Origin: Parcubacteria group bacterium Gr01-1014_31
GTDB lineage: Bacteria > Patescibacteriota > Patescibacteriia > Buchananbacterales > GWA2-38-13
DNA: 64,000 nt
Assembly: GCA_007376135.1 (NCBI GenBank)
Contig: VMFR01000005.1
Span: 4,141 to 68,140 of the forward strand
Reading direction: 5' to 3'
A program made the translations under genes and the position numbers. This document shows, one piece after another, positions 19,401-54,742 of this stretch. The notes below the pieces were generated by a model. The model saw nothing but the letters and a program-made list of their open reading frames with translations, ran no database searches and was not told the DNA's origin. Numbering within the stretch: position 1 is the first letter of the stretch; every line of letters begins with the position of its first letter.

Positions 19401-19429
19401 AAACGGGGCTATTAGCCTTTCTTCAAAGA

Positions 19430-19460
19430 ACAAAAAAACGCCAGCATGAGGGCTGGCGAT
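19430..19460 (-). terminator. Rho-independent terminator on the minus strand, following the PRTase-like gene
   Basis: Minus strand: gccagccctcatgctggc followed by ttttttt. Confidence 0.55.
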
Positions 19461-19718
19461 TCCTCTTAAGAGCTCATACTAGAAGATTTCAAATGCAACG
19501 CGTCAGCTATTTGAATTTACAATTCACATAGATACCTTTTAATAGAGCCCGCACTTTTATCTTAGCACTACTCAGCTTAGTAGGCCAGAATAGTATCAAG
19601 GTATTCGATAACGGCTGTAGCTTAGGCCAGTCCACTATTGTGGCGCTTTTTAGAAAACTTCCGCCGTTCTTTAGTGAACAGAAATTTTATGGTGCGCATT
19701 TCTTAATCGCACACTCCT

Positions 19719-20579: not shown

Positions 20580-21576
20580 CTGTCGGGGTGCCATCCTCCA
20601 TTTTCGCAAGCAGATTTGTAATATAGACCTGCACACCCCTCACGGCCCTCACAAAATCTTTATTAACCTCGCTTGTTAGCTGAGATTCCAATCCCCTTAA
20701 CTTTTCTACAAGATCATTACAAGCGGTAATTGCTGTTGTAATATTTCGAGGTGGCAAAAAAATATCAAAAGTATCACGAGTTTCTAGCTCTATGTGGTTC
20801 ACGTATTCTTTTAACTTTGATTTAAATTCTTTCTCCCGGTTCTGTTCTTGGGCTTTTGCCGATGCTTCAATTATCCTTCGGAAATGAATTACGCTTACGA
20901 TCTTCCCTGATTTGTATTTATCAACAAGCCTTTGAATCAAAACTTCTCTGCCAAGTTCCCTAAATAATCCTGGTAGTTTATCCTCATAAATCTTAATGAC
21001 CGGGTAGGCCTCAATCCAAAAATTCGAAGCCACTCGTCTATCGGGCTCTGACTCTAGAGACAAAGCCTGAAACTTTTCCGGAAAGCTAAGTAATATTTTG
21101 CAACGCTCCACCTGCATCTCACTTAAACCCGTAAGATCAGATATCTTTTTATTATCGTCTTCGTGCAGCTCTTCAATGATGGTTTTCAGACTAATCGCAG
21201 TTGGCATTAGCTCCCATTGTTGTCTAAAGTTATGAATCGAAAACATGTAAAGCAGGCCGGCAATTTTTGTCGGTGGCTCAACAATATTAGCGGGTATAGT
21301 AATCTCAAAACCATCATCAGCCAATTCCGCGCAACACCGAAACCGTCTCTCCCCATCTAAAATTGCATATTTTTCTTGTCCTTTAATTTTGTAAGCGGTG
21401 ATCGGTACAAGTACCCCATGTTGTTGGATACTTTCTTTTAATTCTCGTAAGGGCACGGGGTCGAATAACTTTCTGGGGTTATTTCGATTTGGTTTTATCT
21501 CGGTGACATGAAGATGCTTGAGTAGTCCGGTAGGAACAACTTCCGTAATAACTTTATGTTGTTTATTACTAGACAT
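20569..21576 (-). CDS. ParB/sulfiredoxin-like nuclease domain protein
   Basis: HVTEIKPNRNNPRKLFDPVPLRELKESIQQHGVLVPITAY...LDGERRFRCC is the ParB N-terminal domain with its GERR motif. Confidence 0.65.
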   Translation of the reverse strand: MSSNKQHKVITEVVPTGLLKHLHVTEIKPNRNNPRKLFDPVPLRELKESIQQHGVLVPITAYKIKGQEKYAILDGERRFRCCAELADDGFEITIPANIVEPPTKIAGLLYMFSIHNFRQQWELMPTAISLKTIIEELHEDDNKKISDLTGLSEMQVERCKILLSFPEKFQALSLESEPDRRVASNFWIEAYPVIKIYEDKLPGLFRELGREVLIQRLVDKYKSGKIVSVIHFRRIIEASAKAQEQNREKEFKSKLKEYVNHIELETRDTFDIFLPPRNITTAITACNDLVEKLRGLESQLTSEVNKDFVRAVRGVQVYITNLLAKMEDGTPTDDE

Positions 21577-21580
21577 TATT

Positions 21581-22387
21581 TTAAACCAATATGTTTGAAA
21601 TCAAAAATTCTCGAGCAGCTTTCCGATTAGAGGAGAACCCAGCTATGCTTCTCCTCACAGAAATTATTCTTTTATAAAATCCTTCCGAAAGCATTTTCGC
21701 CTCATTTGATTCTAAATAGCTAACCAAAAAAGGAATCCGCATGCGACTAAGCCTGCGCATCCATTTTCGTAATCTAATAAGCTTTTTGAAATCAAATTTA
21801 GAGCTATCATAGTCTGTAAAAATGTTTTTGTTATGGACACTGAAAGGCGGATCCATATAGACAAAATCTCCTTTCCGAACGTAACGAAGTGTTTCATCAA
21901 AATCAGCAGCTAAGAGATGTGCCCTCTTCAAAAGCTTAGAAGAACGAGAAAAGACAAGCTCGCTCGGGATGCTGCCAGTTTTGCCGTAAGGCACATTAAA
22001 TTGGCCTGATTGATTTGTTCTATATAAACCATTGAAACAAAAACGATTGAGATACACAAAACGAGCCGCCCTTACCAATGGGTTGTTGATTTTTTTTGAA
22101 TCAAGAGACCTTAGCGAGTAATATGTCTGCTTAGATTGATCTAGCTCTTCTAATATAGCCAAGACTCCTTTCCAATCTTTTTTTATCTGCCTATAGGTAG
22201 CTATCAACTCAAGATTAATATCAGCGAGTAGGGCCTCTTTTGGGGCTACATTAAAAAAGAGGCACGCAGATCCGGCGAACGGTTCCACATACCGCTTACT
22301 TTGACTTGCGCGCCAATAACTGGAAAGTAACGGTACTAACTGCCTCTTGCTGCCAGCCCAACGTAAAATTGTATAATTAGCTGCCAT
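21581..22387 (-). CDS. Dam-family DNA N6-adenine methyltransferase
   Basis: LRWAGSKRQLVPLL...YVEPFAGSACLFF (AdoMet-binding motif I) and DPPF (motif IV). Confidence 0.8.
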   Translation of the reverse strand: MAANYTILRWAGSKRQLVPLLSSYWRASQSKRYVEPFAGSACLFFNVAPKEALLADINLELIATYRQIKKDWKGVLAILEELDQSKQTYYSLRSLDSKKINNPLVRAARFVYLNRFCFNGLYRTNQSGQFNVPYGKTGSIPSELVFSRSSKLLKRAHLLAADFDETLRYVRKGDFVYMDPPFSVHNKNIFTDYDSSKFDFKKLIRLRKWMRRLSRMRIPFLVSYLESNEAKMLSEGFYKRIISVRRSIAGFSSNRKAAREFLISNILV

Positions 22388-29483: not shown

Positions 29484-30116
29484 ATGATAGCAACTCTTCC
29501 CATGCCGATGCGACGCGCAGCAGCCTTGCTGGCGGCAGCCGGGCTGCTCCTGGCGGGGCTCATGTTCGCGCTGCAACAGCGGCCGGCGCAGGCGGCTCCG
29601 TCCTCCGCGGCGGGCGGCATGTGTCCCCGCGACACGGCCGGCACGATCTATCTCGAGATCAAAGGTATTGAGGGCGAATCCAAGGACCAGCAGCATCCGG
29701 GCTGGCTAGAACTTGAATCCTACAGCTGGGGCATGACCCAGACGGGCGCGATCGGCGGCGGTGGGGGCGGCGGCGCCGGCAAGGTCAGCATGCAGGATTT
29801 CCACTTCACGATGAAGATGGATAAAGCCTCGCCCAAACTGATGCAGGCCTGTGCACTTGGCGAGCACCTCCGCGAGGTCAAGCTGGACGTGCGGCGCCCC
29901 AACGCCCCGGAATCCTTCCTGCAGTGGACGATGGAAGACGTTTTCTGCTCGTCATACCAGACGAGCAACATCGCAAACGGCGACGCCCTTCCGACCGAGC
30001 AGGTCAGCCTGAACTTCGGCAAGATCAAGGTTTCCTACACCGAGCAGGACAAGATGTGCAAACCGGGCGAAAAAACCGAATTCCAGTGGGACGCGGAGAC
30101 CAATACCGGCGTCTAG
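29484..30116 (+). CDS. hcp: Hcp1-family protein (type VI secretion tube protein) with an N-terminal Sec-type signal peptide
   Basis: IYLEIKGIEGESKDQQHPGWLELESYSWGMTQTGAIGGGGGGGAGKVSMQDFHFTMKMDKASPKLMQACALGEH aligns closely with P. aeruginosa Hcp1 (IKIGDVKGESKDKTHAEEIDVLAWSWGMSQSG...GGGGGAGKVNVQDLSFTKYIDKSTPNLMMACSSGKH). The N-terminal 45 aa, MPMRRAAALLAAAGLLLAGLMFALQQRPAQA|AP, is a canonical signal peptide. An alternative internal start at 29619 would give a standard Hcp. Confidence 0.7.
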   Translation: MIATLPMPMRRAAALLAAAGLLLAGLMFALQQRPAQAAPSSAAGGMCPRDTAGTIYLEIKGIEGESKDQQHPGWLELESYSWGMTQTGAIGGGGGGGAGKVSMQDFHFTMKMDKASPKLMQACALGEHLREVKLDVRRPNAPESFLQWTMEDVFCSSYQTSNIANGDALPTEQVSLNFGKIKVSYTEQDKMCKPGEKTEFQWDAETNTGV

Positions 30117-36188: not shown

Positions 36189-37103
36189 ATGCCCAAACAC
36201 CCGTACGCAACAGCAACGACGCTGGCGCTCGCCACGGCTGCAATCTCCGGCGCGGCCAATTTCCTCAACAAGTCGGCGCTGGCCGCCGTTCAGGGCCCGA
36301 TATTCTTCACCACCATGAAAAATGGGGCGGTGGCCGTCGCGCTCATCGGGATCGTGCTGATGTCCCGGCAGTGGCGCGAATTTTTCCATCTCCGTCGCGA
36401 CCAATGGCTACGGCTGCTTTTGGTCGGCGTCATCGGCGGGTCGCTGCCGTTCGCGCTGTTCTTCACGGGCCTGGCCCAAACCTCAGCCATTAACGCGTCG
36501 CTCATCCATAAAACGCTGGTGTTGTGGGTGGTCGTACTGGCCGTGCCCCTGCTGAAGGAACGCATCTCCTGGCTACAGGGACTGGGCATCGCGGCCGTTT
36601 TTTCCGCCAATCTCCTGGTCGGCGGTTTTGCGGGTTTCAAATTTAACGCCGGCGAACTGATGATACTGGCCGCCACCCTGTTGTGGGCGGTGGAGAATGT
36701 TATTGCCAAACGGACGCTTGCCGACGTGTCCAGCCTGACCGTGGCTTCCGCGCGCATGGTCATTGGGTCCGCGCTACTGTTTGTTCTTCTTACCTGGCGC
36801 GGAGAGGCCAGCCGGATACCGGAACTGAACGCGGCGCAATGGGGATGGGTGGCACTCAGCGGCGTGCTGCTCACGGGGTACGTTTTGACCTGGTACGCAG
36901 CGCTCAAGCGCGCGCCGGCAACGTACGTCGCGACGCTTTTGGTACCCGCGACTCTAGTGACCAACGTGCTTTCCGCGGTGTTCGTGACCCACGCGATTCC
37001 CGCGCGCGACGTGCAGGCAATACTGTTGTTCGTTCTGGGTACCCTGCTGGTCATCCGCTTTGCCAGAACGACAAAAATTCCGGCTCCCTCACCGGTGACC
37101 TAG
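36189..37103 (+). CDS. EamA/DMT family transporter
   Basis: Ten predicted TM helices with a duplicated EamA architecture. Confidence 0.65.
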   Translation: MPKHPYATATTLALATAAISGAANFLNKSALAAVQGPIFFTTMKNGAVAVALIGIVLMSRQWREFFHLRRDQWLRLLLVGVIGGSLPFALFFTGLAQTSAINASLIHKTLVLWVVVLAVPLLKERISWLQGLGIAAVFSANLLVGGFAGFKFNAGELMILAATLLWAVENVIAKRTLADVSSLTVASARMVIGSALLFVLLTWRGEASRIPELNAAQWGWVALSGVLLTGYVLTWYAALKRAPATYVATLLVPATLVTNVLSAVFVTHAIPARDVQAILLFVLGTLLVIRFARTTKIPAPSPVT

Positions 37104-37104
37104 T

Positions 37105-37836
37105 ATGGACGGCATTTTGCGCTGCAGCCGATACTCCTTTGGACCCAACCGGCTGCACTACTGCGGCCCTGACCAGAACCGCGAGATGCTCGCCTATCTG
37201 GAGGAAGGCGTCAGCGACGCGGGGCTAACCGGCATTCTGAAAAAATTCGCGACGCTGTACCCGTATCTCCAGCACATCGCGGCTGCTAACCGCATCGCCG
37301 ACCCGTTTGATGAGCGCGTGGTGGAGGCCTACTGGATCGGCAACGACCTGCTGGAACGCGTCTCACCGCAATCGCTCTATACGCACCTACGCGATACCCT
37401 GCAGCTGAAGGACCGCCTGGGCAGCGTGGAGTTCGACCGTTTGACCGAGAAGATCCGCGCGGGTGCCCTTCCCCACCACTCCTTCCATGTCTTGGACATC
37501 TGGTTGCGCACCGGCCATGTGGAGCGAATGCATACCGTAGAAAGCATGGACGCCTGCCGCATCGGCTGGGGCACGGTGGTGACCGTGCAAGGGCCCGCGA
37601 TCACCGTGGAAACCGAGCCGGTCGTCCTGCGCGACGGCAAATTGGAATTGGGCGCGCCCGTGCAGCGGACGGTTACCCGTGCGCTGGAAACGGCCAGCGA
37701 CCTCGAGCAGGTACAACCCGGGGACCTCATCACCATGCACTGGGGAGTTCCGTGCGAGGTCGTCACCTCTGCCCAGGCCGCGGTATTGCGCCGCTACACC
37801 GTCCGCCACCTGCAGTTGGCGAATCTGACGCTATGA
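37105..37836 (+). CDS. Conserved hypothetical protein (possibly DUF6390-like)
   Basis: N-terminal SRYSFGPNRLHYCGPD motif. Gene coupled to the downstream YibE/F gene. Confidence 0.4.
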   Translation: MDGILRCSRYSFGPNRLHYCGPDQNREMLAYLEEGVSDAGLTGILKKFATLYPYLQHIAAANRIADPFDERVVEAYWIGNDLLERVSPQSLYTHLRDTLQLKDRLGSVEFDRLTEKIRAGALPHHSFHVLDIWLRTGHVERMHTVESMDACRIGWGTVVTVQGPAITVETEPVVLRDGKLELGAPVQRTVTRALETASDLEQVQPGDLITMHWGVPCEVVTSAQAAVLRRYTVRHLQLANLTL

Positions 37837-38942
37837 GGATACGTTTTATTCTTCTCTCGGTAGTACTGGCCGTTGTGCCGTGGGCCGCAGCGGCGGATGA
37901 CCATGATGCCGGCGACGTGTTCACCGCACGGGTCGTCGAAATATTGGAGCAGCAAACGGAAACCCGCGACAACGGTTCAACCTTCACCCAGCAGGATCTG
38001 AGGCTCGAGGGACTGCAGGGGGAATGGCGTGGGCGCACTATCGTCACCCAAGGCGTCTCCGACATCGAAATCCTTGCCAGCCGCGTCTATCGCGTCGGCG
38101 AGAAGGTCTTGGTACAGCGCGTGCCGGGGGTAGACGGCAGCGACGCGTTCTACGTGGTGGATGCGGTGCGCACCGGCAGCCTGGCGGCGCTGGCGTTGGT
38201 CTTCGCACTGGTGGTCGTCGCGATCGGCCGCCGCAAAGGCCTGCGGGCGCTCGTCAGTCTGGCCGCCAGCTATGCCGTCATCATGTGGTTCATCCTGCCG
38301 CGGTTGTTGGCCGGCGCCAACCCGCTGCTGGTCAGCGTCCTGGGTGGGTTTGCCATCCTCACGGCGATCACCTACCTGACCGAGGGGTGGTCGAAACAGT
38401 CGCATGTCGCGCTGCTGGCGATGCTCGTCAGCCTAGTGGCGACGTACCTCATCGCCGTGCTGTTCACGACGCTGGCACAGATCAGCGGCACCGCCCAGGA
38501 GGAGGTGCTAGTGCTGGCCGACGCGGCCACGGGCGCATTGGATTTCCGGGGACTGCTCTTGGCGGCCATCATCATCGGCACCCTGGGGGTACTGGATGAT
38601 GCGGTCATCAGTCAGGTGGAGACCGTCGCCCAGCTGCGCCAAGCCAACCCGGGATTGTCCGCGCGCGAACTTTATCGGCGGGCGTCTGCGGTCGGCACGG
38701 CACACCTCGGCGCAATTATTAATACGCTATTTCTCGCCTATGTGGGCGCCTCGCTGCCTTTGCTGCTCCTGTTCTCGCTCCGTACGCCGCCCTTTACCAG
38801 CACCGCGCTGCTCCTCAATAGCGAACTCATTGCCACCGAGATCGTGAAAACACTGGTGGGTTCGATCGGCTTGGCCTTGGCGGTGCCGATCGCGACGGCG
38901 CTCGCCGCCTACGTGCCGCACTCGCGCACACACCCGAGATGA
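37833..38942 (+). CDS. YibE/F family membrane protein
   Basis: Signal peptide plus an extracytoplasmic domain, then multiple TM helices. ATGA overlap with the upstream gene. Confidence 0.55.
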   Translation: MRIRFILLSVVLAVVPWAAAADDHDAGDVFTARVVEILEQQTETRDNGSTFTQQDLRLEGLQGEWRGRTIVTQGVSDIEILASRVYRVGEKVLVQRVPGVDGSDAFYVVDAVRTGSLAALALVFALVVVAIGRRKGLRALVSLAASYAVIMWFILPRLLAGANPLLVSVLGGFAILTAITYLTEGWSKQSHVALLAMLVSLVATYLIAVLFTTLAQISGTAQEEVLVLADAATGALDFRGLLLAAIIIGTLGVLDDAVISQVETVAQLRQANPGLSARELYRRASAVGTAHLGAIINTLFLAYVGASLPLLLLFSLRTPPFTSTALLLNSELIATEIVKTLVGSIGLALAVPIATALAAYVPHSRTHPR

Positions 38943-39322
38943 TAGTTTTTGTCTTCGGCAACTCCGACCTGGCGGCTGATTCCTTGCCGCTGCGGATCTT
39001 GCCGCGGCTGCAGGCACTGCGCCCGTCGGTGGATTTTCGCGTGGCCGACCCCAACGAAGAATGGGACATCCCGTGCCAGCTGGTCGTCGTGGACACGGTC
39101 GTTGGCATTTCGCAGGTGACCGTGTTCGAGGGGCTTGAAAAATTTTCGGCCGCGCCGCGGATGACCATGCACGACTTTGACGCGCTTTCCAACTTGCGGC
39201 TGCTCCAAAAGCTCGACAAACTGGACCAGGTGACCGTCATCGGCATACCTCCCGCCATGGACGAAACAAAAGCGGCGGCAGAAGTTGCCGCCGCGCTGCA
39301 ACGCTTGCCGACCGCCGGCTAA
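38939..39322 (+). CDS. Hydrogenase maturation protease (HybD/HyaD/HoxW-like), short form
   Basis: Collinear with HybD: MIVFVFGNSDLAADSLPLRILPRL vs ILVLGVGNILLTDEAIGVRIVE; VVVDTV vs IIADAI; MTMHDFDALSNL vs ISPHQLGLADVL; VTVIGIPP vs LTLVGVIP. Confidence 0.55.
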   Translation: MIVFVFGNSDLAADSLPLRILPRLQALRPSVDFRVADPNEEWDIPCQLVVVDTVVGISQVTVFEGLEKFSAAPRMTMHDFDALSNLRLLQKLDKLDQVTVIGIPPAMDETKAAAEVAAALQRLPTAG

Positions 39323-39858
39323 TGCCGGTGGCCGCCGCCTTCCCCGTGGCCGTGGACGCTGTCCGTGGCGCAGGTGTAGAGCTGGTGCGAATATACTTGA
39401 AACCCAAGCATCGCCTGGGTATACTGGCGGGCTTCGACGGTGCTTTTTTCGGCATGCTCCTGGAGGTGCTCCAAATGGTGGAAGCGGTTCCAGAGCTGCT
39501 CTTGGACGGCAGCGGTGAGAAAATCAACGAGCGGCTGCGGGTCGCCGGTCTCAATGGCGCGTTCGGCCAGCGGGATGACCGGACCAACAGACAGCCCTGC
39601 GGGCTGCAGCCCGCTGAACGGCGCGCCCTCTCCCGCCCGATGGAGGCGCACGACGGTCTCATACAGCCACTGCTCGGCCACCTCACGCGCCGCTTCGCCC
39701 AATGCCCGCGCGGCCATAGTTTTCATGAACGCGGCACGCAGTTCGGCTTCGGCCTCCGCCGGCGCATACGGCAAAAGGATGGCTACGTTATTTTCCGCAA
39801 CGGCCCGCTTGGCGGCTTTGATGACCGGCCCGTCCCACGTATCACAATGCGGCGGCAT
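39319..39858 (-). CDS. Hypothetical protein with a His-rich C-terminus, last gene of the hydrogenase operon
   Basis: Ends ...SVHGHGEGGGHRH; a possible metal (Ni)-binding tail. Confidence 0.4.
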   Translation of the reverse strand: MPPHCDTWDGPVIKAAKRAVAENNVAILLPYAPAEAEAELRAAFMKTMAARALGEAAREVAEQWLYETVVRLHRAGEGAPFSGLQPAGLSVGPVIPLAERAIETGDPQPLVDFLTAAVQEQLWNRFHHLEHLQEHAEKSTVEARQYTQAMLGFQVYSHQLYTCATDSVHGHGEGGGHRH

Positions 39859-40052
39859 ACCGTGAAGTGATTAAGATTCAAAATACCGTTTTACTCGCAA
39901 GGACTTTCCGGCGCTGGGACGTCCGCGCCGTGCTCGATCCACTGCCCGCCGCGGCAGCTCCAGTTGTCCTCGCCCGACAGCAGGCGCAGCCCCAGGAAGA
40001 ATGCTACGACGACGCCCGCGATCAGCATGATCATTGCGCTCTCCCGCATAGC

Positions 40053-41348
40053 CTAGGCGTCCCAGTTCACCTTGAGGAAGTGCGAACCGCAGCTCATGCA
40101 CGGATCATAGGCGCGGATGAGCTTCTCGATCTCGAACGCGATCTTCTCTTTCGGAGCGTCCGGCAGCAAGTCTTGAACCAGACGGCGCACGTCGTCCTCG
40201 ATATTGAACTGGTTCTGACCGGTAGGAACGACGATCTCCCCGCGCTGAACGATCCCGTCCGCGCCGAGCTCCACCTTGTGGTAGAGCGTGCCGCGCGGCG
40301 CTTCCACCACACCCACGCCAACAGCCGCCCTCGGTTTGGCGGTCACCACCGGTTCCGGCGTGAACGTCGTTTGCGCCAGAGTGTCGATGCTGGCATCCAC
40401 GCAGTGCAGGATCTCGATGGCCTGCGCCAGGTTGTTGTGAAAAATATCGGTCGAGGGAAAGACTGCCAGCGCCGCTACCACGTCGGCTTTGGTCCTTGCG
40501 TGCAGCCGGTCTTTGGCCAGGTTCATCCGCGCCAGCGCCCCGACCATGTAGGACTCCCCGCGGTGCCGGTACGCGGACGCCTGCGAATACGGCAAAACTA
40601 CTTTTTCCAGATGGTCACGGAACTGGTCCTCCTGCAAGCACAACCCTTTGCCCGTCTGGATGCAGCCGTTGACAAAACCATAGCGTTCCGGCAGAAGGGC
40701 CATGTAGTTGGTCTGGCGGTCGAAATGGAACGGGGCACGCAAGAACACGTCGATGAGGCGCAGTACGGCGGGCCGCGCGGCTTGAAGCTTTTTCACCGCC
40801 TCAGCGATACCCGCCGGGTCCGGAAATTTCAGAAAGCCGCCGATGGTCGGATACAGCGCATGCACGGAGCGCCCCGACACCAATGTCGCGAGGTAGTTGC
40901 CGGCGGATTTTATCTCGAACCCGTCGTGGAGCAGCTGGTGCTGCTCGGGGTCATTCTCGTCGAAATCCAAAAAAGCGTCCTTGCCGTAGATATCGGGCAG
41001 GGCAAACAGGTAGAGGTGCAGGGCATGGTCGCGGATGTTCAGCCCGGCCATGGTCAGCTCCTTGAGCGCGATGCTTTGCGGCGTGGGCGTTATACCCAGT
41101 GCCCGTTCGCAGGCTTCAATGCTGCACAGCAGGTGCGCATTGGAACAGGTGCCGCAAATGCGCGCCAGCAGCTGCGGCAGCGCGGCGATGGGTTTCCCCT
41201 GCATCGCCTGGGTAAAGAAGCGCTTGAACTCGGTGATCTTGAACTGGACCTGAACGACCTTGCCGCCGCGAACCTTGACGTCCAGCGCGGCCGAACCTTC
41301 CACCTTGGTCAGGCGGTCCATCGTGAGGTCTAGGTCGATGGTGTGCAT
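40053..41348 (-). CDS. [NiFe]-hydrogenase large subunit, about 432 aa, likely group 3 (cytosolic)
   Basis: N-terminal RICGTCSNAH and C-terminal DPCMSCGSH metal-binding motifs; an 8-aa tail after His consistent with protease processing. The ORF track's 150-aa N-terminal extension was rejected; start set at MHTIDLDLTMDRL. Confidence 0.75.
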   Translation of the reverse strand: MHTIDLDLTMDRLTKVEGSAALDVKVRGGKVVQVQFKITEFKRFFTQAMQGKPIAALPQLLARICGTCSNAHLLCSIEACERALGITPTPQSIALKELTMAGLNIRDHALHLYLFALPDIYGKDAFLDFDENDPEQHQLLHDGFEIKSAGNYLATLVSGRSVHALYPTIGGFLKFPDPAGIAEAVKKLQAARPAVLRLIDVFLRAPFHFDRQTNYMALLPERYGFVNGCIQTGKGLCLQEDQFRDHLEKVVLPYSQASAYRHRGESYMVGALARMNLAKDRLHARTKADVVAALAVFPSTDIFHNNLAQAIEILHCVDASIDTLAQTTFTPEPVVTAKPRAAVGVGVVEAPRGTLYHKVELGADGIVQRGEIVVPTGQNQFNIEDDVRRLVQDLLPDAPKEKIAFEIEKLIRAYDPCMSCGSHFLKVNWDA

Positions 41349-41365
41349 AACAAGAAAGGCAAAAA

Positions 41366-42055
41366 TCAAAATGCAAAAGGCAAAAGCTTGGCGGTCAATT
41401 CGGCGGCCAGCAGCCCCCCCATGACGATACTTAGACACCCGGCGCTCAGTTGTACCGCGCGGTGTGCCCGGTCGAACCGCTGCGTGAGCAGGAATGGCAC
41501 GGTCAACGCCGACGATACGGCCATCATCCCAAGGATGGACCCCGCCCCGAACACGCCGGCAAACAGCATACCTTGGCCGAACGTCGGGGCACTCGCCATG
41601 ACCAGCAGTGCGAGCGCAGCGCTCCCCGCCAGCCCGTGGAGCATCCCGACAAGGAACGAACGGTGCTGGTGGGCATGCGCGGGACTGCCGGCGTGGGCGT
41701 GCCAGTGCACATGCCGTACGCCATGGTCGTGGACATGCGCGTGCACGTGCAGCCGCTCCCGCCGCATCGTGCGCAGGACGTTGACCCCGAGCCACACCAG
41801 CATCGCCGCGACGGCATACTCAAAGAGCAGCGCCAAGACGACCGGCATCGTGACGCGGAACGCGAGCAGCAGAATACCGACGGTCATCAGCGCGAGGGTG
41901 TGCCCGAGCCCCCAACGCAAACCTAACTGCCACGACCGCCGCACGCTTTTCGTTTCCGCGGCCATCGCAGTGACCGCGAGGACATGATCGGCGTCTAAGG
42001 CATGCTTGACGCCCAGCACCAGTCCCAGCAAGTAAATTGACCACCAGGTACTCAT
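41366..42055 (-). CDS. NicO/RcnA-type Ni2+/Co2+ transporter
   Basis: KHALDADH is the HX4DH motif. His-rich loop HVHAHVHDHGVRHVHWHAHAGSPAHAHQH. Six TM helices. Confidence 0.65.
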   Translation of the reverse strand: MSTWWSIYLLGLVLGVKHALDADHVLAVTAMAAETKSVRRSWQLGLRWGLGHTLALMTVGILLLAFRVTMPVVLALLFEYAVAAMLVWLGVNVLRTMRRERLHVHAHVHDHGVRHVHWHAHAGSPAHAHQHRSFLVGMLHGLAGSAALALLVMASAPTFGQGMLFAGVFGAGSILGMMAVSSALTVPFLLTQRFDRAHRAVQLSAGCLSIVMGGLLAAELTAKLLPFAF

Positions 42056-42741
42056 AACGCGCCCCCTCGCAGTTCCTTGACCAGCGCATTTACTTTCGCC
42101 AAAAACGTATTCGGGTCCATCGGGCAGCCCGGGATTTCCGCGTCAACCTTGACGACGTCCGATACTTTTTGCACCTTCGGGAGGGCGGAAAACCGCGCCA
42201 CTAGTGGGGCGATCTCGGCCTGCTGCTCGGGCGTGAATGTATTGCGCTGCCCCGCCGGCAGTCCGATGCAAGCGCACGCCCCGACGGCCACCAACTTTTT
42301 GGACCGTCCGCGAATGTCCCGTACAGTTGCCGCCTGGTGCTCGGAGGCAATCGCCCCCTCGATGAAAGCAATATCGAACGCATCCATGACGTTCCGCGAC
42401 TTCAGCACCCGGGCATGGCGGAAATCGAACAGCCGTTTCCACTCCTGCCAGTGGTCATTCATCACCTCGGTCATCACCACCGTATTGTCCTCGCAGCAGG
42501 AGAAGGAAAACCATCCAATTTTCAGCTTCGGCGGGAGCGGCGGGACGGCGGGAATGATGGCGGGCGCCTGCGCGCTGCGCACCGCCAGGGCCCGGACGGG
42601 TGGCTTTTTCGCCGTCCGCCGAAGGGTCTTTGGCAAAGATAAACGAGGTTTTGTTAGACGCTTCTTGACAACCCGTTTTACTGCGCGAGAGCGCAGCCTG
42701 ACAGGCCTACGTTTGCCAATTTTCAATTTTCGATTTCCCAT
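42052..42741 (-). CDS. [NiFe]-hydrogenase small subunit (NuoB/HoxY-like) with an unusual basic N-terminal extension; start uncertain
   Basis: KLKIGWFSFSCCEDN...GACACIGLP...IPGCPMDP cluster-binding motifs. In-frame N-terminus of about 70 aa rich in K/R with no alternative ATG. The annotated ATG lies inside the IR of the adjacent inserted element. Confidence 0.6.
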   Translation of the reverse strand: MGNRKLKIGKRRPVRLRSRAVKRVVKKRLTKPRLSLPKTLRRTAKKPPVRALAVRSAQAPAIIPAVPPLPPKLKIGWFSFSCCEDNTVVMTEVMNDHWQEWKRLFDFRHARVLKSRNVMDAFDIAFIEGAIASEHQAATVRDIRGRSKKLVAVGACACIGLPAGQRNTFTPEQQAEIAPLVARFSALPKVQKVSDVVKVDAEIPGCPMDPNTFLAKVNALVKELRGGAL

Positions 42742-43185
42742 GAATGTTACATTAGTATTTCAATGAGGCTCGTTCACGTAGGGTAGAAGTTATCTTTTGG
42801 AAAATCATAGTTAGTGCCTGCGTCTCAAGCCACAACTTTCGAATATCTGTCCTCATGTCTGGTTGCGCAGTTACCAACATCCGCAGCCAATGCTTGGTTT
42901 CCTGGGCCTCTTTTTTACAAATGGCTATTTTATGGCCAAAATCCTTTTTTGAGCTAGCACCATTCGCTTCCATGTAGTTCGCCCCAATGCTTGTGGCAGA
43001 GCGAATAAGTTGAGAAATTATCGGCTTTGTTATGTGATCAGGATTCACGGTTCTACAAAAAACGATCACTGCGCTGCCAAATAATGCCGTCCGTTCCTCC
43101 AAATCATATCGCTTTGTTTGGAATTTTTGTTCCATTGAAAATTCATCGAAAATTGGAAATTGTAAATTGAAAATTTGCTCGCTCT
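42714..43185. mobile_element. AT-rich IR-bounded insertion carrying a four-helix-bundle (rRNA-IVS-type) protein gene
   Basis: Left GCCAATTTTCAATTTTCGATTTCCCATGAATG and right ATTCATCGAAAATTGGAAATTGTAAATTGAAAATTTGC are imperfect inverted repeats. About 40% GC vs about 65% in the flanks. Confidence 0.5.
42752..43135 (-). CDS. Four-helix-bundle protein (23S rRNA intervening-sequence protein family, TIGR02436-like)
   Basis: YDLEERTALFGSAVIVFCRTV...LIRSATSIGANYMEANGASSKKDFGHKIAICKKEAQETKHWLRML. Confidence 0.7.
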   Translation of the reverse strand: MEQKFQTKRYDLEERTALFGSAVIVFCRTVNPDHITKPIISQLIRSATSIGANYMEANGASSKKDFGHKIAICKKEAQETKHWLRMLVTAQPDMRTDIRKLWLETQALTMIFQKITSTLRERASLKY

Positions 43186-44452
43186 AGCGCGCTAAGGTCC
43201 CCAGGTCCACGGTCGGGTCGGCAAGCTTATCCTTAATGGGACTTACCTTTACGTTCTTTTCGATCAGTTTGCATACGGAGGCAAGCTCGTTGGTGCGGTT
43301 GATGAAGGTCGCACCCACCAGCTCGTCATGCTCGTCCACAATGAGACGCGCAAAGGTATTGCCCTGCGGCCCCCGGGTGATGACTTGGCGGCCCTGCGAC
43401 CGCACGTCGCCGGCGAACGCGATGGTCAGCCCGAATCCCATGGCCGTATAGAACGACACCAGCTTGAACGGTTGCCGCTCGCCCAGCATGTTGGCGGCCG
43501 CAAGCTTGCCGTGCATCTGGGCGTTGACCCAATTGCCCAGCAATACATGCTCGTCCAAAATAAGGTCGTTGAACTCGGCGCAATCGCCGGCCGTATACAC
43601 GTCCGGTGCGCTGGTCTTCAGGTACTCGTCGGCCAGGATCCCGCGATTGGTTTTCACGGTTGACCCCTGGAGCCAGGAAAGGTCGGGCTGCGCCCCTACG
43701 CCAGCGACAATAACTTCACAAGGAATATTCTGACCGCTTTCCAGGGTCACCCCCGACACCTTGGCGCGGCCGTCCACGGTTTTGACGAGCGCGTTGCGGT
43801 GGATCTTCACGCCGCCGGAAAGCAGCGCCGCCTCGATCATTTTGCCCGACTGTTCATCCAGCAACGGGTCCCAGTAGTGCGGCTCGCGCATGACCAGGGT
43901 GACCTGCAAGCCTGCCATCGTCAACATCTCGCACATCTCAAAACTGGTGAATCCGGAACCGACGCAAACAGCGCGCTTGGCTTTTTTTATGGCGGCAATG
44001 ATCTGTTTCGCGTCGTCCAGCGTCCGCAGGTACAGGACTCCCTTTTTGTCGGCGCCGTCAGCAGGCCAAGGGACGGCCTGCGCCCCAGTCGCGATCAGCA
44101 GCTTGCGATACCGCAATGTTTTTTTGCCGTCCAGGGTAACGGTGTGCGCCGCCGCGTCAACGGCCGTGGCGCGCTGCCCCGCCAGCAAATCAATTTTCAG
44201 CTCGCGGTACCATTGCAGGGTTTTCAGCCAGATCTGGTCGAAGGGGATCTTGCCGAGGAAAAAATTCGGTTTGGACAACAAAATGCGCGAATAAAAACGG
44301 TGCGGTTCGTCGGAGACGACCGCAATCGTTGCGCCCGCATCCCGCTGCCGCAAGGTTTCGGCGGCCGTGGTACCCGCCACCCCACCGCCGATGATGCAAT
44401 AGTCGTAGGCCACCGCCTGCCGGCTACGGATAGATCTGCTTGCCCGCTTCAT
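43184..44452 (-). CDS. FAD/NAD(P)-dependent pyridine nucleotide-disulfide-family oxidoreductase (ferredoxin/rubredoxin reductase-like)
   Basis: YDYCIIGGGVAGTTAAETL FAD fold; a second Rossmann fold VCVGSGFTSFEMCEML; TAGDCAEF. Confidence 0.65.
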   Translation of the reverse strand: MKRASRSIRSRQAVAYDYCIIGGGVAGTTAAETLRQRDAGATIAVVSDEPHRFYSRILLSKPNFFLGKIPFDQIWLKTLQWYRELKIDLLAGQRATAVDAAAHTVTLDGKKTLRYRKLLIATGAQAVPWPADGADKKGVLYLRTLDDAKQIIAAIKKAKRAVCVGSGFTSFEMCEMLTMAGLQVTLVMREPHYWDPLLDEQSGKMIEAALLSGGVKIHRNALVKTVDGRAKVSGVTLESGQNIPCEVIVAGVGAQPDLSWLQGSTVKTNRGILADEYLKTSAPDVYTAGDCAEFNDLILDEHVLLGNWVNAQMHGKLAAANMLGERQPFKLVSFYTAMGFGLTIAFAGDVRSQGRQVITRGPQGNTFARLIVDEHDELVGATFINRTNELASVCKLIEKNVKVSPIKDKLADPTVDLGTLAR

Positions 44453-44699
44453 CGTACAGGAAGATCGCGCGCGTCGGGCAGGATTGCGCGGCCGCTAAGA
44501 TGGTCGCGTCGCCGACCTGCTGGTCCTCAAGGCTCCCCCGCTCGGCCGGACCCGAATTTTTTACGCCCTGAAGTTTAATGACCGCCTTGTTCTCGGCATC
44601 CAGTTCGAACACGGTGTTGGCCGTAATGACGCAGGTCGACGCCCCGATGCACAGGTTGCGGTCGACGACGATCTTGGCGATCTTCTTCTCGTCTGCCAT
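44424..44699 (-). CDS. Small single-cluster ferredoxin
   Basis: VVDRNLCIGASTCVITANTVFELD...AAQSCPTRAIFL resembles [3Fe/4Fe-4S] Fdx-type ferredoxins. Confidence 0.5.
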   Translation of the reverse strand: MADEKKIAKIVVDRNLCIGASTCVITANTVFELDAENKAVIKLQGVKNSGPAERGSLEDQQVGDATILAAAQSCPTRAIFLYDEAGKQIYP

Positions 44700-44729: not shown

Positions 44730-45335
44730 CTAACAAGCAAATTCACCCTGCCCGCACGGCGAGGGCAACTCGCGCTGCAGCGGCACGCCCGGCTCAGTGC
44801 CAGTGGCGATATACTCCTCAACTTTGCGCTGCGCCCACTCGTGCTCATGGTTCCATAACGTCCAGAAATGGCGCCACTCGTTCCAGCCGATACCCAACGA
44901 TTTGACGTAGATGCCCTGCTCGGCCAGCATTTGGCCGACCTTGCGGCCGGTCATGCACGGCATGCTGTAGCAATAGACAATCACCTCTTTGCCCCCGGGC
45001 AACGCGCGAAATCCTGCAGTAATACGGTCTTTTTCGTCGTAGGCGGAGGTATTGGGGTCCGTGTAGGCAGAAATGTTGACCGCCCCGATGATGTGTTCAC
45101 GCTCGTACTCCTGGGGTGAGCGCAGGTCAACGAGGACGAAACTTTTGTCGCCCTTATCCATCTTACCGCGCAGACTGTGCGGACTGACGTGCACCGCATT
45201 CTCGATGCGATAAAACTCGGCAATGGAATCCTGGGGGGTCGGCGTCGCGGGTCTATTGTTGTACCACACGACGGCTCCGCCGGCCAGGGCGCCGAAAATG
45301 GCCGCAATGATGATGGTTCTGATGGTCTGCATATG
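44730..45335 (-). CDS. Rhodanese-domain sulfurtransferase, membrane-anchored
   Basis: Active-site loop VYCYSMPCMTGRK (CxxGxR). N-terminal TM. Confidence 0.6.
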   Translation of the reverse strand, partial: HMQTIRTIIIAAIFGALAGGAVVWYNNRPATPTPQDSIAEFYRIENAVHVSPHSLRGKMDKGDKSFVLVDLRSPQEYEREHIIGAVNISAYTDPNTSAYDEKDRITAGFRALPGGKEVIVYCYSMPCMTGRKVGQMLAEQGIYVKSLGIGWNEWRHFWTLWNHEHEWAQRKVEEYIATGTEPGVPLQRELPSPCGQGEFAC

Positions 45336-45431
45336 CGGATAGTATACCGGCCCGGGGCGGCAAAAACAAGATAAAAAACGGGCCACCTGGCGGCGGCCCG
45401 TTTTGTTGCGGCGGATTTTTTTCGTCGGCGA

Positions 45432-53239: not shown

Positions 53240-54742
53240 ATGCGGATGATCCCGGCCACCATGGCCACGCAGCACCCGGACAACGCGGGACCTCCGTACT
53301 GGGAACGTGACAGCGACGGATTCGTCTCCACGGGCGAAGAGATCGAGGAGTGCCTATCGGCATTCCGCGACCTGGGTTGCCAGGAATTCATGTGGGACTG
53401 GGAGGGCAAGCACGTCGACGAGGCGGTCGTCGATAAGCTCTTCCATGCCCACCTCGCCTTTTTTAAAAAACGCCAGTTGGGCCGTGACGTATTTTTGACC
53501 TTCCGCATCCCCAACATCTGGCACGAGCGCGGCTACAGTTTGGCGCGCGCGATGATGGGCATCCATACGGCGGAAAGTTTTGCCCGCGACCTGGGCCTCC
53601 ATACGCCGCCGCTGTTCGAGGTCATCTTGCCGATGACCAAAAAGGCATCCGACATCATTACCATTCAAAGAACCTTCAGCCGCCTGTCGCGCTTTACCAG
53701 CAGGCTCTTCCGCGAACCGTGCCATTTCCACTACCTCAACGTACTGCCCCTGCTGGAGGGTGTTGATGACCTACTGTCCGCACCGCGGCTGCTTGAGCGC
53801 TACCTGGTGCTGCACCGCCGCGAGTTCGGAAAAAAACCCTCTTCGCTTCGACTCCACATCGCGCGCAGCGACCCGGCGCTCAACGCCGGGCTGGTGCCGG
53901 CGGTCGTGGCAGGCAAAGTGGCGCTCCATCATTACTATCGGTTCGGCCGCCGCCACAACATCGCGATCTATCCGGCGCTCGGAGCCGGCACGCTGCCCTT
54001 CCGTGGCGGTTTGTCGCCCCTGCGCATCAACGATTTTATCCGCGAGTACGGCGGGGTGCGCACCGTCTACATTCAGTCGGCGTTTCGTTACGACTTCCCC
54101 TTGCCGACGGTCATTCGGGCGATCCAACGGCTGAACCGCGAACTGCCGCGCACCGAGCCGCCGCACTACTCCCACGCCCAGATCGCAACGGCGGCGCAGC
54201 TCTGCCGTCAATTCACTGCGCCCTACCGCCGGACCGTGGAAGCGATCGCGCCCATGGTCAACCGCGTCGCCCAGCATGTCCCCAGCCGACGCGAACGGAA
54301 ACTGCACATCGGACTGTTCGGCTACTCGCGCACGATGGGGAAGGTGCGGCTACCGCGGGCCATTCCCTTCACCGCAGCGCTCTACTCCCTTGGGGTTCCG
54401 CCGGAACTGATCGGCACGGGTCGCGGGCTGCGGCTTTGGGGACGCGCAAACAGCGGCGTGGAAACCTACTACCGTAACTTCCGCCGCGATCTGGTGCTGG
54501 CCGGCCGCTCCCTTAACAAGGACAACCTGGCGCGGTTGAGCGCGCTGCATCGCGGTTGGCGAGCCGTTGCGGACGATGTTGCCGCCATCGAATCCTTTCT
54601 GGGCCTGGAACTGGGGCCCAAAACCCGCGCCGACGAGGTCCACCACACCCTGACGACCGACGTATTGCGAAACTGGTCGACGGGCGCGGAGGTCGCCGAC
54701 CTCATCATCCAGTCGGGCAAGATCCGTCACAGCCTCGGGTAA
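53240..54742 (+). CDS. Phosphoenolpyruvate carboxylase, archaeal type (PepcA family, about 500 aa)
   Basis: N-terminus MIPATMATQHPDNAGPPYW...LGCQEFMWDWEGKH and the overall length match archaeal-type PEPC rather than the 900-aa bacterial Ppc. Confidence 0.65.
   Translation: MRMIPATMATQHPDNAGPPYWERDSDGFVSTGEEIEECLSAFRDLGCQEFMWDWEGKHVDEAVVDKLFHAHLAFFKKRQLGRDVFLTFRIPNIWHERGYSLARAMMGIHTAESFARDLGLHTPPLFEVILPMTKKASDIITIQRTFSRLSRFTSRLFREPCHFHYLNVLPLLEGVDDLLSAPRLLERYLVLHRREFGKKPSSLRLHIARSDPALNAGLVPAVVAGKVALHHYYRFGRRHNIAIYPALGAGTLPFRGGLSPLRINDFIREYGGVRTVYIQSAFRYDFPLPTVIRAIQRLNRELPRTEPPHYSHAQIATAAQLCRQFTAPYRRTVEAIAPMVNRVAQHVPSRRERKLHIGLFGYSRTMGKVRLPRAIPFTAALYSLGVPPELIGTGRGLRLWGRANSGVETYYRNFRRDLVLAGRSLNKDNLARLSALHRGWRAVADDVAAIESFLGLELGPKTRADEVHHTLTTDVLRNWSTGAEVADLIIQSGKIRHSLG

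Follow-up and report, generated by a model that had tools for sequence, protein, structure and literature searches.

A compact hyd2-lineage [NiFe]-hydrogenase locus in a CPR genome and its probable ferredoxin and flavoprotein partners

The window analysed here, a stretch of 64,000 nucleotides from the CPR genome of Parcubacteria bacterium Gr01-1014_31, carries the genes of a minimal cytosolic [NiFe]-hydrogenase with two subunits, which belongs to the CPR hyd2 lineage, is related to group 3b and is probably wired via a ferredoxin and a flavoprotein. Hydrogenases of this kind have already been described, as a clade in which the small subunit is truncated (~160 aa), beta/gamma subunits are lacking, genes for a PF07992 flavoprotein and an Fe-S protein lie close by and the function is uncertain, and their partners and function were left open (Jaffe et al., 2020, BMC Biol 18:69, PMC7304191). 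ORF coordinates and Pfam matches bear out the minus-strand gene order given in a first-pass annotation of this DNA, which runs from the ferredoxin to the DUF6448 protein through genes that overlap or abut; the reading frames are all intact, the database matches of the operon genes are strong, and chance ORFs are not the explanation. The operon likely has its upstream boundary at a terminator-like hairpin of 13 pairs with a T-run, which follows an upstream 552-aa gene (45375..45404, minus strand), and likely ends at a second such hairpin of 9 pairs (8 GC) with a T-run (39272..39294, minus strand).

The hydrogenase subunits

The large subunit (431 aa; 40053..41348, minus strand; Pfam NiFeSe_Hases) has intact L1 (RICGTCSNAH) and L2 (DPCMSCGSH) motifs, and the locus had been correctly recognised as that of a compact soluble [NiFe]-hydrogenase. 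Its closest PDB matches are group 3b structures (E 2.7e-60), and its best NCBIfam matches are group 3b alpha subunits, at 217 bits against equivalog cut-offs of 700, which lie far above; groups 3c, 3d and 3a and group 1 score much lower. More than 4000 homologs were found, with top matches at ~70% identity from Parcubacteria, Kerfeldbacteria, WWE3 and other CPR, and the homologs in 80 CPR species genomes are 61-96% identical to the window sequence. Invariance across CPR, at ~70% identity, extends to the four Cys of the Ni-Fe motifs, the four that bind the cluster and ~180 further positions of the large subunit. The description of this subunit as His-terminated was a misreading, as eight residues (FLKVNWDA) follow the final motif His and are conserved across relatives as HFLKVxW. 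Directly after the large subunit lies a 52-aa ORF with a hydrophobic segment (39891..40049, minus strand), which is conserved in the 90-96% identical relative L001 and for which no family match was found.

The small subunit (229 aa; 42052..42741, minus strand) is composed of a 71-aa Lys/Arg-rich N-terminal tail and a 158-aa core, which in comparison with 250-aa delta subunits comprises the proximal-cluster domain only. Its earlier description as NuoB-like with a CC motif agrees with the Pfam Oxidored_q6 match (8.6e-18) and the motif SCCED, and in the family alignment the only conserved Cys are the tandem pair C82-C83, C156 and C206. Canonical 250-aa delta subunits read x-C-E-G-C where hyd2 proteins read C-C-E-D-N/S, and the sequence predicts that the small subunit retains one cluster, bound by a NuoB-like tandem-Cys motif. 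The basic tail had been presented as a further peculiarity of the enzyme; it is present here, with a net charge of +23, but is lineage-specific (+20 in L001, +7 in L002), the family median tail being 8 aa. At two hyd2 loci the small subunit is fused to an NAD(P)H flavoprotein module. One fusion (P0242), found in independent assemblies, joins a Pyr_redox_2 (TrxR-like) domain to a hyd2-type small subunit and is followed by a large subunit with 53% identity to that of the window and the same HFLKxxW tail, and the other (P0248) joins a NuoF-like FMN/[4Fe-4S] module to the small subunit, with genes for a large subunit and DUF6390 after it. In the archaeal fusion, the partner domain resembles thioredoxin reductase and carries a CVNC motif. 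Both fused flavoproteins belong to different subfamilies from that of the window, which is PdR/BphA4-like.

Electron-transfer partners and their genomic context

The operon is headed by a single-cluster ferredoxin (91 aa; 44424..44699, minus strand; Pfam Fer4_15 at 2.4e-10, Fer4_13) and an FAD/NAD(P)H flavoprotein (422 aa; 43184..44452, minus strand; Pyr_redox_2 and Reductase_C), whose gene shares its first 29 nt with the ferredoxin gene. The ferredoxin is related to that of Pyrococcus furiosus (best PDB match 2z8q/1siz), with Ala replacing Asp14, and an alignment of 28 sequences contains exactly three invariant Cys (C17-x2-A20-x2-C23 ... C74-P); its cluster is predicted to be [3Fe-4S], or [4Fe-4S] with one non-Cys ligand. 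The flavoprotein is of the ferredoxin/rubredoxin-reductase type, with 3lxd, 8c0z_E AorC, BphA4 and rubredoxin reductases as best PDB matches and PadH, the NAD-linked subunit of 2-oxoacid oxidoreductase, as best NCBIfam match; a conserved redox-active Cys pair was not found in it. As the first-pass annotation had pointed out, this partner set differs from the HydBG, HoxFU and FrhBG of characterised group 3 enzymes. Its further view that the set is unusual holds against those enzymes, but within a large CPR clade the set is the norm and not an oddity of the Gr01-1014_31 locus; strictly, such partners are not those of a well-characterised subgroup either, as group 3b is well characterised and its characterised members are without them.

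Synteny was followed in 80 GTDB species loci (CPR) anchored on the large subunit and reciprocally in 80 metagenome loci anchored on the flavoprotein, and under either anchoring the island NifS-NifU-Nfu-Fd-FADox-[ACD-PFOR]-SSU-LSU-protease-DUF6390-EamA recurs, where ACD stands for ADP-forming acetyl-CoA synthetase and PFOR for 2-oxoacid:ferredoxin oxidoreductase. Anchored on the large subunit, the small subunit lies immediately upstream in 80/80 loci, the flavoprotein within 10 kb in 51/80 (adjacent in 25, further upstream in 24, mostly with ACD/PFOR between, and downstream in 2) and the ferredoxin within 10 kb in 44/80, while PFOR is found in 31 and ACD in 23 of these loci plus the window. In 13/80 loci the flavoprotein was not found despite >5 kb of upstream sequence, hence this partner is not obligatorily linked. 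Among the 80 flavoprotein-anchored loci, the ferredoxin is immediately upstream in 60, and the flavoprotein is followed by the small subunit in 35 and by ACD/PFOR in 24; where the downstream flank reaches 7 kb or more, a hydrogenase is present in 24 of 30 loci.

We infer that the hydrogenase and the pair are coupled, both physically and in redox terms. Cut to the proximal-cluster domain, the small subunit would hold a single [4Fe-4S] cluster on the tandem Cys-Cys and two more Cys, and with one cluster it could therefore not wire electrons to a distant site alone. The missing wiring would be provided by the two genes at the operon head, the soluble three-Cys ferredoxin and the ferredoxin-reductase-type FAD flavoprotein, as a detachable counterpart of the beta/gamma diaphorase module, and the path would be H2 <-> [NiFe] <-> one [4Fe-4S] proximal cluster <-> ferredoxin <-> FAD <-> NAD(P)(H). 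In relatives, the neighbouring PFOR, coupled to ACD, may also feed the ferredoxin pool, and the island as a whole could vent fermentative reductant as H2 or, in the reverse direction, generate NAD(P)H from H2. The potential of a three-Cys ferredoxin may not be low enough to evolve H2 or reduce NAD+, which would count against this path.

It is conceivable, although we consider it unlikely, that the hydrogenase simply draws its electrons from ferredoxin (PFOR -> ferredoxin -> H2) and that the ferredoxin/flavoprotein pair serves Fe-S biogenesis with NifS/NifU, in the manner of ISC Fdx and Fdx reductase, or a 2-oxoacid oxidoreductase, as a PadH epsilon-like component. The PadH match and the PFOR and ACD counts are consistent with this, and in many loci the pair directly follows NifS-NifU-Nfu, even when ACD/PFOR parts it from the hydrogenase; a role in Fe-S assembly or one linked to PFOR would explain such retention just as well. 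However, linkage of the flavoprotein is commoner with the hydrogenase (24/30) than with nifSU, which lies within the flank in 18 of the 39 flavoprotein-anchored loci whose upstream sequence spans 3 kb or more. Moreover, the flavoprotein abuts the small-subunit gene in 25 loci, many of which have neither nifSU nor PFOR, the window and L001 among them, and the two small-subunit fusions likewise argue for wiring of the hydrogenase to NAD(P)H.

A sulfhydrogenase-like or disulfide-reducing enzyme, in which H2 or NAD(P)H would reduce polysulfide, S0 or thiol-disulfide, as proposed for group 3b, and a rhodanese would handle sulfur, appears improbable. Sulfhydrogenases I and II are the closest characterised relatives, polysulfide reduction is often suggested in the CPR literature, the CVNC-bearing archaeal fusion partner would suit such chemistry, and the putative operon starts with a rhodanese-domain gene with an N-terminal hydrophobic segment (44730..45386, minus strand; Pfam Rhodanese E 2.6e-15), the first past the terminator. 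Yet this rhodanese family (f31) occurs in 3 loci only (window, L001, L036) and is therefore not a core part, the beta/gamma (sulfide-dehydrogenase-like) subunits of characterised group 3b enzymes are absent from the window, and its flavoprotein is without the conserved redox-active Cys pair.

Maturation genes and strain-specific additions

Convergent with the operon is a gene for a 127-aa HybD/HycI-like maturation endopeptidase (38939..39322, plus strand), a convergent protease being present in 65/80 large-subunit-anchored loci. Its earlier reading as a short HybD-like protease is upheld by its family, in which 10/11 members match HycI and D14, D52 and H78 are invariant, but the window sequence alone matches weakly (Pfam HycI E 1.6e-3, under the gathering score). 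The protease would cleave the large-subunit C-terminus during maturation. hypA-F were not found in Pfam scans of ~50 ORFs of the window, in line with the first reading, but a maturation-type gene is present in DUF6390 (243 aa; 37105..37836, plus strand), given its HypC-like C-terminal domain. This beta-barrel starts at the invariant C151, follows a helical N-domain with invariant Cys/His and matches HypC 2z1c_B (TM 0.63), which makes DUF6390 a candidate large-subunit chaperone that probably helps maturation. In an archaeal hyd2 locus, a shorter DUF6390 homolog adjoins a genuine HypC, and hypC and hypD adjoin one hyd2 locus (L056). An EamA-family (DMT) membrane transporter (36189..37103, plus strand) accompanies DUF6390 beside hyd2 loci in CPR and one archaeal locus, and is fused to it in P0154.

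The NicO-type transporter reported between two structural genes is confirmed as a NicO/UreH-like putative Ni(II) permease (229 aa, ~6 TM; 41366..42055, minus strand), with Pfam matches to NicO (31.0 bits, cut-off 27.7 bits) and DsbD_2, the motifs KHALDADH in TM1, WGLGHT and LHGLAGS and, within residues 96-135, a loop with 12 His. The start codon of its gene overlaps the stop codon of the small-subunit gene (ATGA), and a NicO-like transporter is found in only 4/80 other loci. Upstream of the operon terminator lies the gene for the all-helical DUF6448 protein (179 aa; 39319..39858, minus strand), which ends in HGHGEGGGHRH; in its family the N-terminus is invariant (MPPHCD[TS]xDGPV) and the C-terminus is rich in His. 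The permease might serve metal supply, and DUF6448 is a candidate metal-binding protein. The third addition encodes a four-helix-bundle protein (127 aa; 42752..43135, minus strand) of the 23S rRNA-intervening-sequence protein family (23S_rRNA_IVP/TIGR02436), with GC 0.43 and GC3 0.44 against ~0.6 and 0.77 in its neighbours. It is a foreign cassette bracketed by an inverted repeat, whose left arm (43145..43178) and right arm (42715..42741, overlapping the annotated small-subunit start codon) match over 27 nt at 85% and 18 nt at 94%, with 0 expected by chance, and form a stem in both MFE and centroid folds; the cassette is missing from all 80 relatives. All three genes, previously listed in the gene order of the operon, are missing from L001 and are strain-specific, accessory single-gene additions in intergenic spacers.

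That the locus is a remnant, in decay or without catalytic activity, such as a sensor or pseudo-enzyme, as the absence of hypA-F from the window and the three insertions inside the operon might suggest, is highly improbable given the invariant residues of both subunits, the intact reading frames, the position of the insertions in spacers, one of them translationally coupled, the retained protease and HypC-like gene, and the hypCD genes of one relative.

Comparison with known systems

With the published hyd2 systems (PMC7304191) the window shares a CPR host, a 3b-related large subunit, a ~160-aa small subunit, the lack of beta/gamma genes, a PF07992 FAD/NAD(P) protein, a small Fe-S protein and a HypC-related family nearby, whereas the NicO-like gene, DUF6448 and the four-helix-bundle cassette within the operon and the 71-aa basic tail are added in the window copy. 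To that account we add the recurring island, the tandem-Cys small subunit with its predicted single cluster, the three-Cys ferredoxin, the two flavoprotein fusions and the HypC-like barrel of DUF6390.

The closest solved relatives of the large subunit, matching over full length (E 1e-58 to 1e-60), are the group 3b NADP-coupled hydrogenases, or sulfhydrogenases I and II, of Pyrococcus and Thermococcus (5yxy, 9nez), which share its short C-terminal extension and to whose delta N-terminal domain the hyd2 small subunit aligns. In contrast to these, HydB and HydG are absent from the window, the delta-type subunit is without the domain holding the other two clusters, and CxxC is replaced by the tandem CC. 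In group 3d HoxFUYH (5xf9) and bifurcating HydABCSL (7t2r), a proximal-cluster-only small subunit passes electrons to a separate flavoprotein module, as proposed here, and the NuoF-like fusion of one hyd2 relative is a further likeness; the window, however, has no HoxF/HoxU homologs but a glutathione-reductase-fold flavoprotein (PdR/BphA4 type) needing a separate ferredoxin. PdR-Pdx, BphA4-BphA3, ArR 3lxd and AorC of tungsten aldehyde oxidoreductase (8c0z) have a flavoprotein of the same architecture and, encoded beside it, a small Fe-S carrier. Unlike in the P450/dioxygenase pairs, the ferredoxin of the window has the P. furiosus-type single-cluster fold and is not [2Fe-2S], and the terminal partner would be a hydrogenase rather than an oxygenase. 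NuoB/Nqo6 of complex I belongs to the same Oxidored_q6 fold family, with two consecutive and two distant Cys and a weak PDB match (2fug_6), and cluster N2 of complex I is ligated by tandem Cys. The hyd2 small subunit differs in that a membrane arm and a quinone site are lacking; its sequence marks it as a derivative of the 3b delta subunit (S-C-C-E-G-C -> S-C-C-E-D-N), and the tandem motif is therefore convergent with that of NuoB.

The hydrogenase locus and its class

The hydrogenase genes lie on the minus strand of the window in the order single-cluster ferredoxin (91 aa, 44424-44699; Fer4_15, E 2.4e-10), FAD/NAD(P) flavoprotein (422 aa, 43184-44452; Pyr_redox_2, E 8.6e-58, plus Reductase_C), four-helix-bundle protein of the 23S-rRNA-IVS family (127 aa, 42752-43135), small subunit (229 aa, 42052-42741; Oxidored_q6, E 8.6e-18), NicO/DsbD_2-like membrane protein (a putative permease; 229 aa, 41366-42055), large subunit (431 aa, 40053-41348; NiFeSe_Hases), a hydrophobic ORF (52 aa, 39891-40049) and a DUF6448 protein with the C-terminus HGHGEGGGHRH (179 aa, 39319-39858). 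Convergent with this operon is a HycI-like gene on the plus strand (127 aa, 38939-39322), and 5' of it, on the same strand, are genes for YibE/F, DUF6390 (37105-37836) and an EamA transporter (36189-37103). ORF listing and profile scans bear out the gene map drawn by the first-pass annotation, including its statement that hypA-F are missing, as none was found among the ~50 window ORFs scanned. Several operon genes abut or overlap: those for ferredoxin and flavoprotein share 29 nt, and a single ATGA holds both the stop codon of the small subunit and the start codon of the permease. Two terminator-like hairpins on the minus strand (45404-45375 and 39294-39272) flank a putative nine-gene unit running from a rhodanese gene to DUF6448. 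The 52-aa ORF, directly 3' of the large-subunit gene, has one hydrophobic segment, found no match in a family search and is kept in L001, the locus of a close relative.

The four cysteines that hold the Ni-Fe site in PF00374 come from an N-terminal RxCGxCxxxH and a C-terminal DPCxxCxxH/R. The large subunit matches this family (Pfam, E 2.3e-25) and carries both motifs, RICGTCSNAH and DPCMSCGSH, which are invariant in 18 relatives. It had been described as His-terminated, which does not hold, since eight residues (FLKVNWDA) follow the His of DPCMSCGSH; the tail HFLKVxW is invariant across the 18 relatives and fits an enzyme that is processed by the neighbouring putative protease. More than 4000 homologs were found, the best ~70% identical and the top ones from Parcubacteria, Kerfeldbacteria, WWE3, Azambacteria and Sungbacteria; identity to the large subunits of 80 CPR species is 61-96%. 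The best PDB and NCBIfam matches are the alpha subunits of group 3b SHI/SHII (208 and 217 bits; E 2.7e-60), as against at most 142 bits for other hydrogenase groups (3c, 3d, 3a, 1), and the 217 bits lie far under the group 3b NCBIfam equivalog cut-offs (700-880 bits). Judged by these best matches, the large subunit appears most similar to group 3b sequences.

Group 3b enzymes are heterotetramers, in which HydB (beta, Fe-S) and HydG (gamma, FAD/[2Fe-2S]/NADPH) are encoded together with alpha and delta, and the delta subunit of ~250-260 aa carries three [4Fe-4S] clusters and a CxxC proximal motif. No HydB/HydG-type gene was found among the ~50 window ORFs scanned, and beta/gamma genes are likewise absent from the families that recur around 80 related loci. 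A CPR-specific clade with these properties, hyd2, has been described as related to group 3b on a long branch, with beta/gamma subunits absent, a truncated small subunit (mean ~164 aa), PF07992 FAD/NAD(P) and small Fe-S families near a subset of the loci, a hypC-like family also nearby, and a function that “remains uncertain” (Jaffe et al., 2020, PMC7304191). The CPR group 3b enzymes of a later paper are of the canonical four-subunit type. With its CPR host, truncated small subunit, PF07992 and Fe-S neighbours and no beta/gamma genes, the locus is near certainly a hyd2 hydrogenase. The peculiarity of its partner set, a ferredoxin plus a flavoprotein, is therefore genuine, but the unusual status that the first-pass annotation gave it falls away, because this gene content has already been published for hyd2 (Jaffe et al., 2020). 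What the window adds is a hyd2 variant that carries accessory metal-handling genes.

Proposed electron-transfer partners of the hydrogenase core

Conservation of the neighbourhood was followed in 80 loci from GTDB species genomes, all of them CPR MAGs, which were anchored on the large subunit and searched with the window proteins. The small-subunit gene is directly 5' of the large-subunit gene in all 80. A convergent gene for the putative protease is at most 1 kb away in 56 loci and at most 10 kb away in another 9. Of the flavoprotein genes, 25 adjoin the small subunit, 24 are found at a greater distance on its 5' side and 2 on the 3' side, and 13 loci that have >5 kb of upstream sequence contain none; ferredoxin is present in 44. 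The recurring island reads NifS, NifU, Nfu, ferredoxin, flavoprotein, small subunit, large subunit and, optionally, a 150-aa family on one strand, followed on the other by protease, DUF6390 and EamA (Pfam); genes for ADP-forming acetyl-CoA synthetase (ACD) and for the beta and alpha chains of 2-oxoacid:ferredoxin oxidoreductase (PFOR), also on the other strand, may stand between flavoprotein and small subunit.

Given such an island, the pair of ferredoxin and flavoprotein could also work for Fe-S assembly or for PFOR instead of the hydrogenase, which is the main rival explanation. A reciprocal test, which avoids the bias of anchoring on the hydrogenase, bears on this: metagenome contigs were scanned with the flavoprotein alignment, yielding 80 loci, in 60 of which ferredoxin is directly 5' of the flavoprotein, while solitary flavoprotein genes number five. 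The following gene is ACD/PFOR in 24 and the small subunit in 35. Upstream flanks of 3 kb or more are available for 39 loci, and 18 of these have NifS/U; downstream flanks of 7 kb or more are available for 30, and 24 of these have a hydrogenase. By these counts, the pair is tied more tightly to the hydrogenase than to anything else.

The ferredoxin has exactly three invariant Cys (C-x2-A-x2-C...C-P), and among solved structures it comes closest to P. furiosus ferredoxin, whose ligand Asp14 it replaces by Ala, so that its cluster would be [3Fe-4S], or 4Fe with a non-Cys ligand. The flavoprotein is predicted to be of the ferredoxin-NAD(P)+ reductase type with a glutathione-reductase fold (PdR/BphA4/rubredoxin reductase), as it combines Pyr_redox_2 and Reductase_C, conserves no redox-active Cys pair and has a small Fe-S partner gene; its best PDB matches are ferredoxin/rubredoxin reductases and AorC. 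Residues at the beta2 end give no decision between NADH and NADPH.

Small subunits of hyd2 have a median length of 166 aa. The one in the window has a core of 158 aa, in which only C82, C83, C156 and C206 are conserved, C83 being Ser in 4 of 64 and C158 usually Val; these four Cys indicate one cluster. The basic N-terminal tail that had been singled out is present, but it is confined to a sub-lineage, with a net charge of +23 here, +20 in L001 and +7 in another relative (L002), and the family median is a tail of 8 aa.

Two fusion proteins bear on how this subunit exchanges electrons. P0242 (500 aa), found in independent assemblies, joins Pyr_redox_2 (TrxR-like, CVNC) to a hyd2-type small subunit; its context is archaeal (ribosomal S24e/S27e, Spt4), and 3' of it are a large subunit 53% identical to that of the window, ending SHFLKIKWD, and then a convergent HycI-like gene. 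P0248 (702 aa) joins a NuoF-like FMN/[4Fe-4S] module to the small subunit; 3' of it come a large subunit (430 aa) and DUF6390. The TrxR-like fusion was located on an archaeal contig (L169:6001-8788), the NuoF-like one on P0248's own contig. Both fusions speak for an NAD(P)H-linked flavoprotein module as the usual docking partner of the single-cluster small subunit; that one is TrxR-like and the other NuoF-like suggests that the electron-input module is interchangeable, and the archaeal locus indicates that hyd2 is not strictly CPR-specific.

In the window, the separate flavoprotein would take this part, bridged to the small subunit by the Fe-S centre of the ferredoxin. Electrons may thus pass between a minimal hydrogenase core, the soluble ferredoxin and the ferredoxin-reductase-type flavoprotein, the ferredoxin being coupled in most relatives to PFOR/ACD as well, and a fermentative episymbiont would in this way carry out H2:ferredoxin:NAD(P) chemistry in either direction. 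On synteny, reciprocity and fusions, we consider this partner chain the best supported of the explanations and somewhat more probable than not.

Candidate maturation genes and strain-specific insertions

HybD/HycI endopeptidases bind metal through an acidic/acidic/His triad, and D14, D52 and H78 are invariant in the putative protease family of the locus. The window protein scores 18.7 bits against PF01750 (HycI), under the cut-off of 23, while 10 of 11 relatives match Pfam HycI (best E 5.1e-5); a family-profile search of PDB sequences found no HybD/HycI, and a hydrogenase maturation endopeptidase is predicted from the Pfam matches across the family.

DUF6390 is ~60% conserved across CPR (2332 matches) and stands beside hyd2 in ~55 of the 80 loci as well as in the window. 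Its AF2 model (pLDDT 74.5, residues 1-45 of low confidence) has a helical domain, a C-terminal barrel and a helix. HypC/HupF (PF01455) is a small OB-fold barrel with an essential Cys at position 2. The DUF6390 barrel resembles OB folds, including HypC of T. kodakarensis (2z1c_B; Foldseek E 7.8e-3, TM 0.63, 24% identity), and the invariant C151, although internal, stands at the start of the barrel, in the place of the N-terminal Cys of HypC. Neither Pfam nor a PDB profile search linked DUF6390 to HypC, and hhalign against one HypC gave a weak E of 0.033; as these sequence links are not significant, a HypC-like C-terminal domain is hypothesised from fold match and gene context. The N-terminal domain is Cys/His-rich. 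In 14 loci the gene directly 3' of the large subunit belongs to the 150-aa family, which is homologous to DUF6390 but shorter (hhalign 94.8%, E 5.5e-8); its archaeal member is flanked by a bona fide HypC and by EamA. The pair of DUF6390 and EamA follows hyd2 in CPR, as the short homolog and EamA do in the archaeal locus; the two are fused in the protein P0154. DUF6390 and EamA may form a new module for large-subunit maturation or metal delivery. Regular expressions for HypB, HypC, HypD and HypE motifs, run over 1.34 Mb (80 loci and the window), matched nothing but the hypC and hypD genes right after the protease in one relative's locus (L056:11865-13187, with a NicO-like gene upstream), which suggests recourse to the usual Hyp proteins wherever these are encoded.

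The large subunit of L001 is 96% identical, and for ~22 kb this locus runs collinear with the window at 87-96% DNA identity, apart from three gene-sized blocks that L001 lacks: 42627-43184 (four-helix bundle), 41351-42063 (permease) and 39301-39926 (DUF6448). The four-helix-bundle gene is compositionally foreign (GC 0.43, GC3 0.44). Inverted repeats of 27 nt and 18 nt bracket it (42715-43178; 0 matches expected by chance), pair in both MFE and centroid folds and with their right arm cover the small-subunit start codon; their motif has no other copy in the window or the 80 loci. The cassette resembles an rRNA intervening sequence, here in an mRNA, and could split or modulate the transcript.

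The permease gene is native-like (GC3 0.79). Its product has KHALDADH in TM1 and matches Pfam NicO marginally (31.0 bits, cut-off 27.7) and NCBIfam nico/NicT weakly; with 229 aa and ~six hydrophobic segments, as opposed to the eight TM helices of the HoxN/NixA type, it is UreH/RcnA-sized. From signature and profile, a NiCoT/NicO/UreH-type, putatively Ni-transporting permease is predicted. Four other hyd2 loci have a homolog (43-47% identical) in one of two positions, and all four homologs carry an HX4DH-type motif and a His-rich loop; this supports a functional link to Ni supply, yet an optional one.

DUF6448 is absent from the other 80 loci; the window's copy matches a protein of Parcubacteria group bacterium Gr01-1014_31 with 100% identity. 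Relatives from many phyla (54-60% identical) invariably begin with MPPHCD[TS]xDGPV, are rich in His at the C-terminus and have varied neighbours (CDF transporter, NosL/ApbE, ribosomal genes); the confident AF2 model (pLDDT 86.9) is all-helical, with no PDB fold match in Foldseek. NiSOD carries an N-terminal HCxxPCGxY nickel hook on a four-helix bundle, and the HCD N-terminus brought this enzyme into consideration; it was rejected as unsupported, on the single Cys, the three residues before the His, the lack of a NiSOD match by PDB sequence or fold, and the varied genomic contexts. DUF6448 is probably an unrecognised metal-binding protein. These strain-level insertions show accessory metal-handling genes slotting into a conserved operon.

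Elsewhere in the window, a low-GC stretch on the minus strand (16488-22387; GC 0.39-0.48 vs ~0.61 for the window) encodes an MmeI-family type IIL restriction-modification enzyme (936 aa), a PRTase-CE, a ParB_N-domain protein and a D12 (Dam-like) adenine methyltransferase, and is probably a horizontally acquired defence island. The plus strand also encodes a T6SS Hcp-family protein with a signal-like N-terminus (29484-30116) and an archaeal-type PEP carboxylase (PEPcase_2; 53240-54742).

Hyd2 among known hydrogenases

Groundwater abounds in CPR bacteria, which are usually classed as hydrogen cyclers of the type “group 3b, NADPH-linked, maybe sulfur-reducing”. If their dominant enzyme is a two-subunit core that exchanges electrons with a ferredoxin and a detachable flavoprotein, then donor/acceptor, thermodynamics and ecological role, H2 scavenging versus fermentative H2 release, are mis-annotated in many metagenome studies; it would also be one of the smallest cores of a cytosolic [NiFe]-hydrogenase and attractive for biochemistry. 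We tentatively propose, while holding it short of even odds, that hyd2 is a distinct group 3 subclass of CPR and at least one archaeon, with a tandem-Cys single-cluster dimer, interchangeable NAD(P)H flavoprotein modules (free ferredoxin plus PdR-type reductase, or fused TrxR-like/NuoF-like) and DUF6390 and EamA as a dedicated maturation pair, the latter possibly in metal delivery.

The small subunit marks the difference from group 3b. Among wider-family representatives, the canonical 250-aa delta has x-C-E-G-C, often S-C-C-E-G-C, in contrast to S-C-C-E-D-N/S in hyd2. Compared with delta, the hyd2 core is shorter and has its four conserved Cys, with CC-E-D-N replacing C-E-G-C; the second canonical Cys appears to have been lost and the preceding one fixed, and tandem-Cys ligation would have arisen from a 3b-type ancestor. 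The likeness is to NuoB, whose cluster N2 is tandem-Cys ligated, as is predicted for the hyd2 small subunit.
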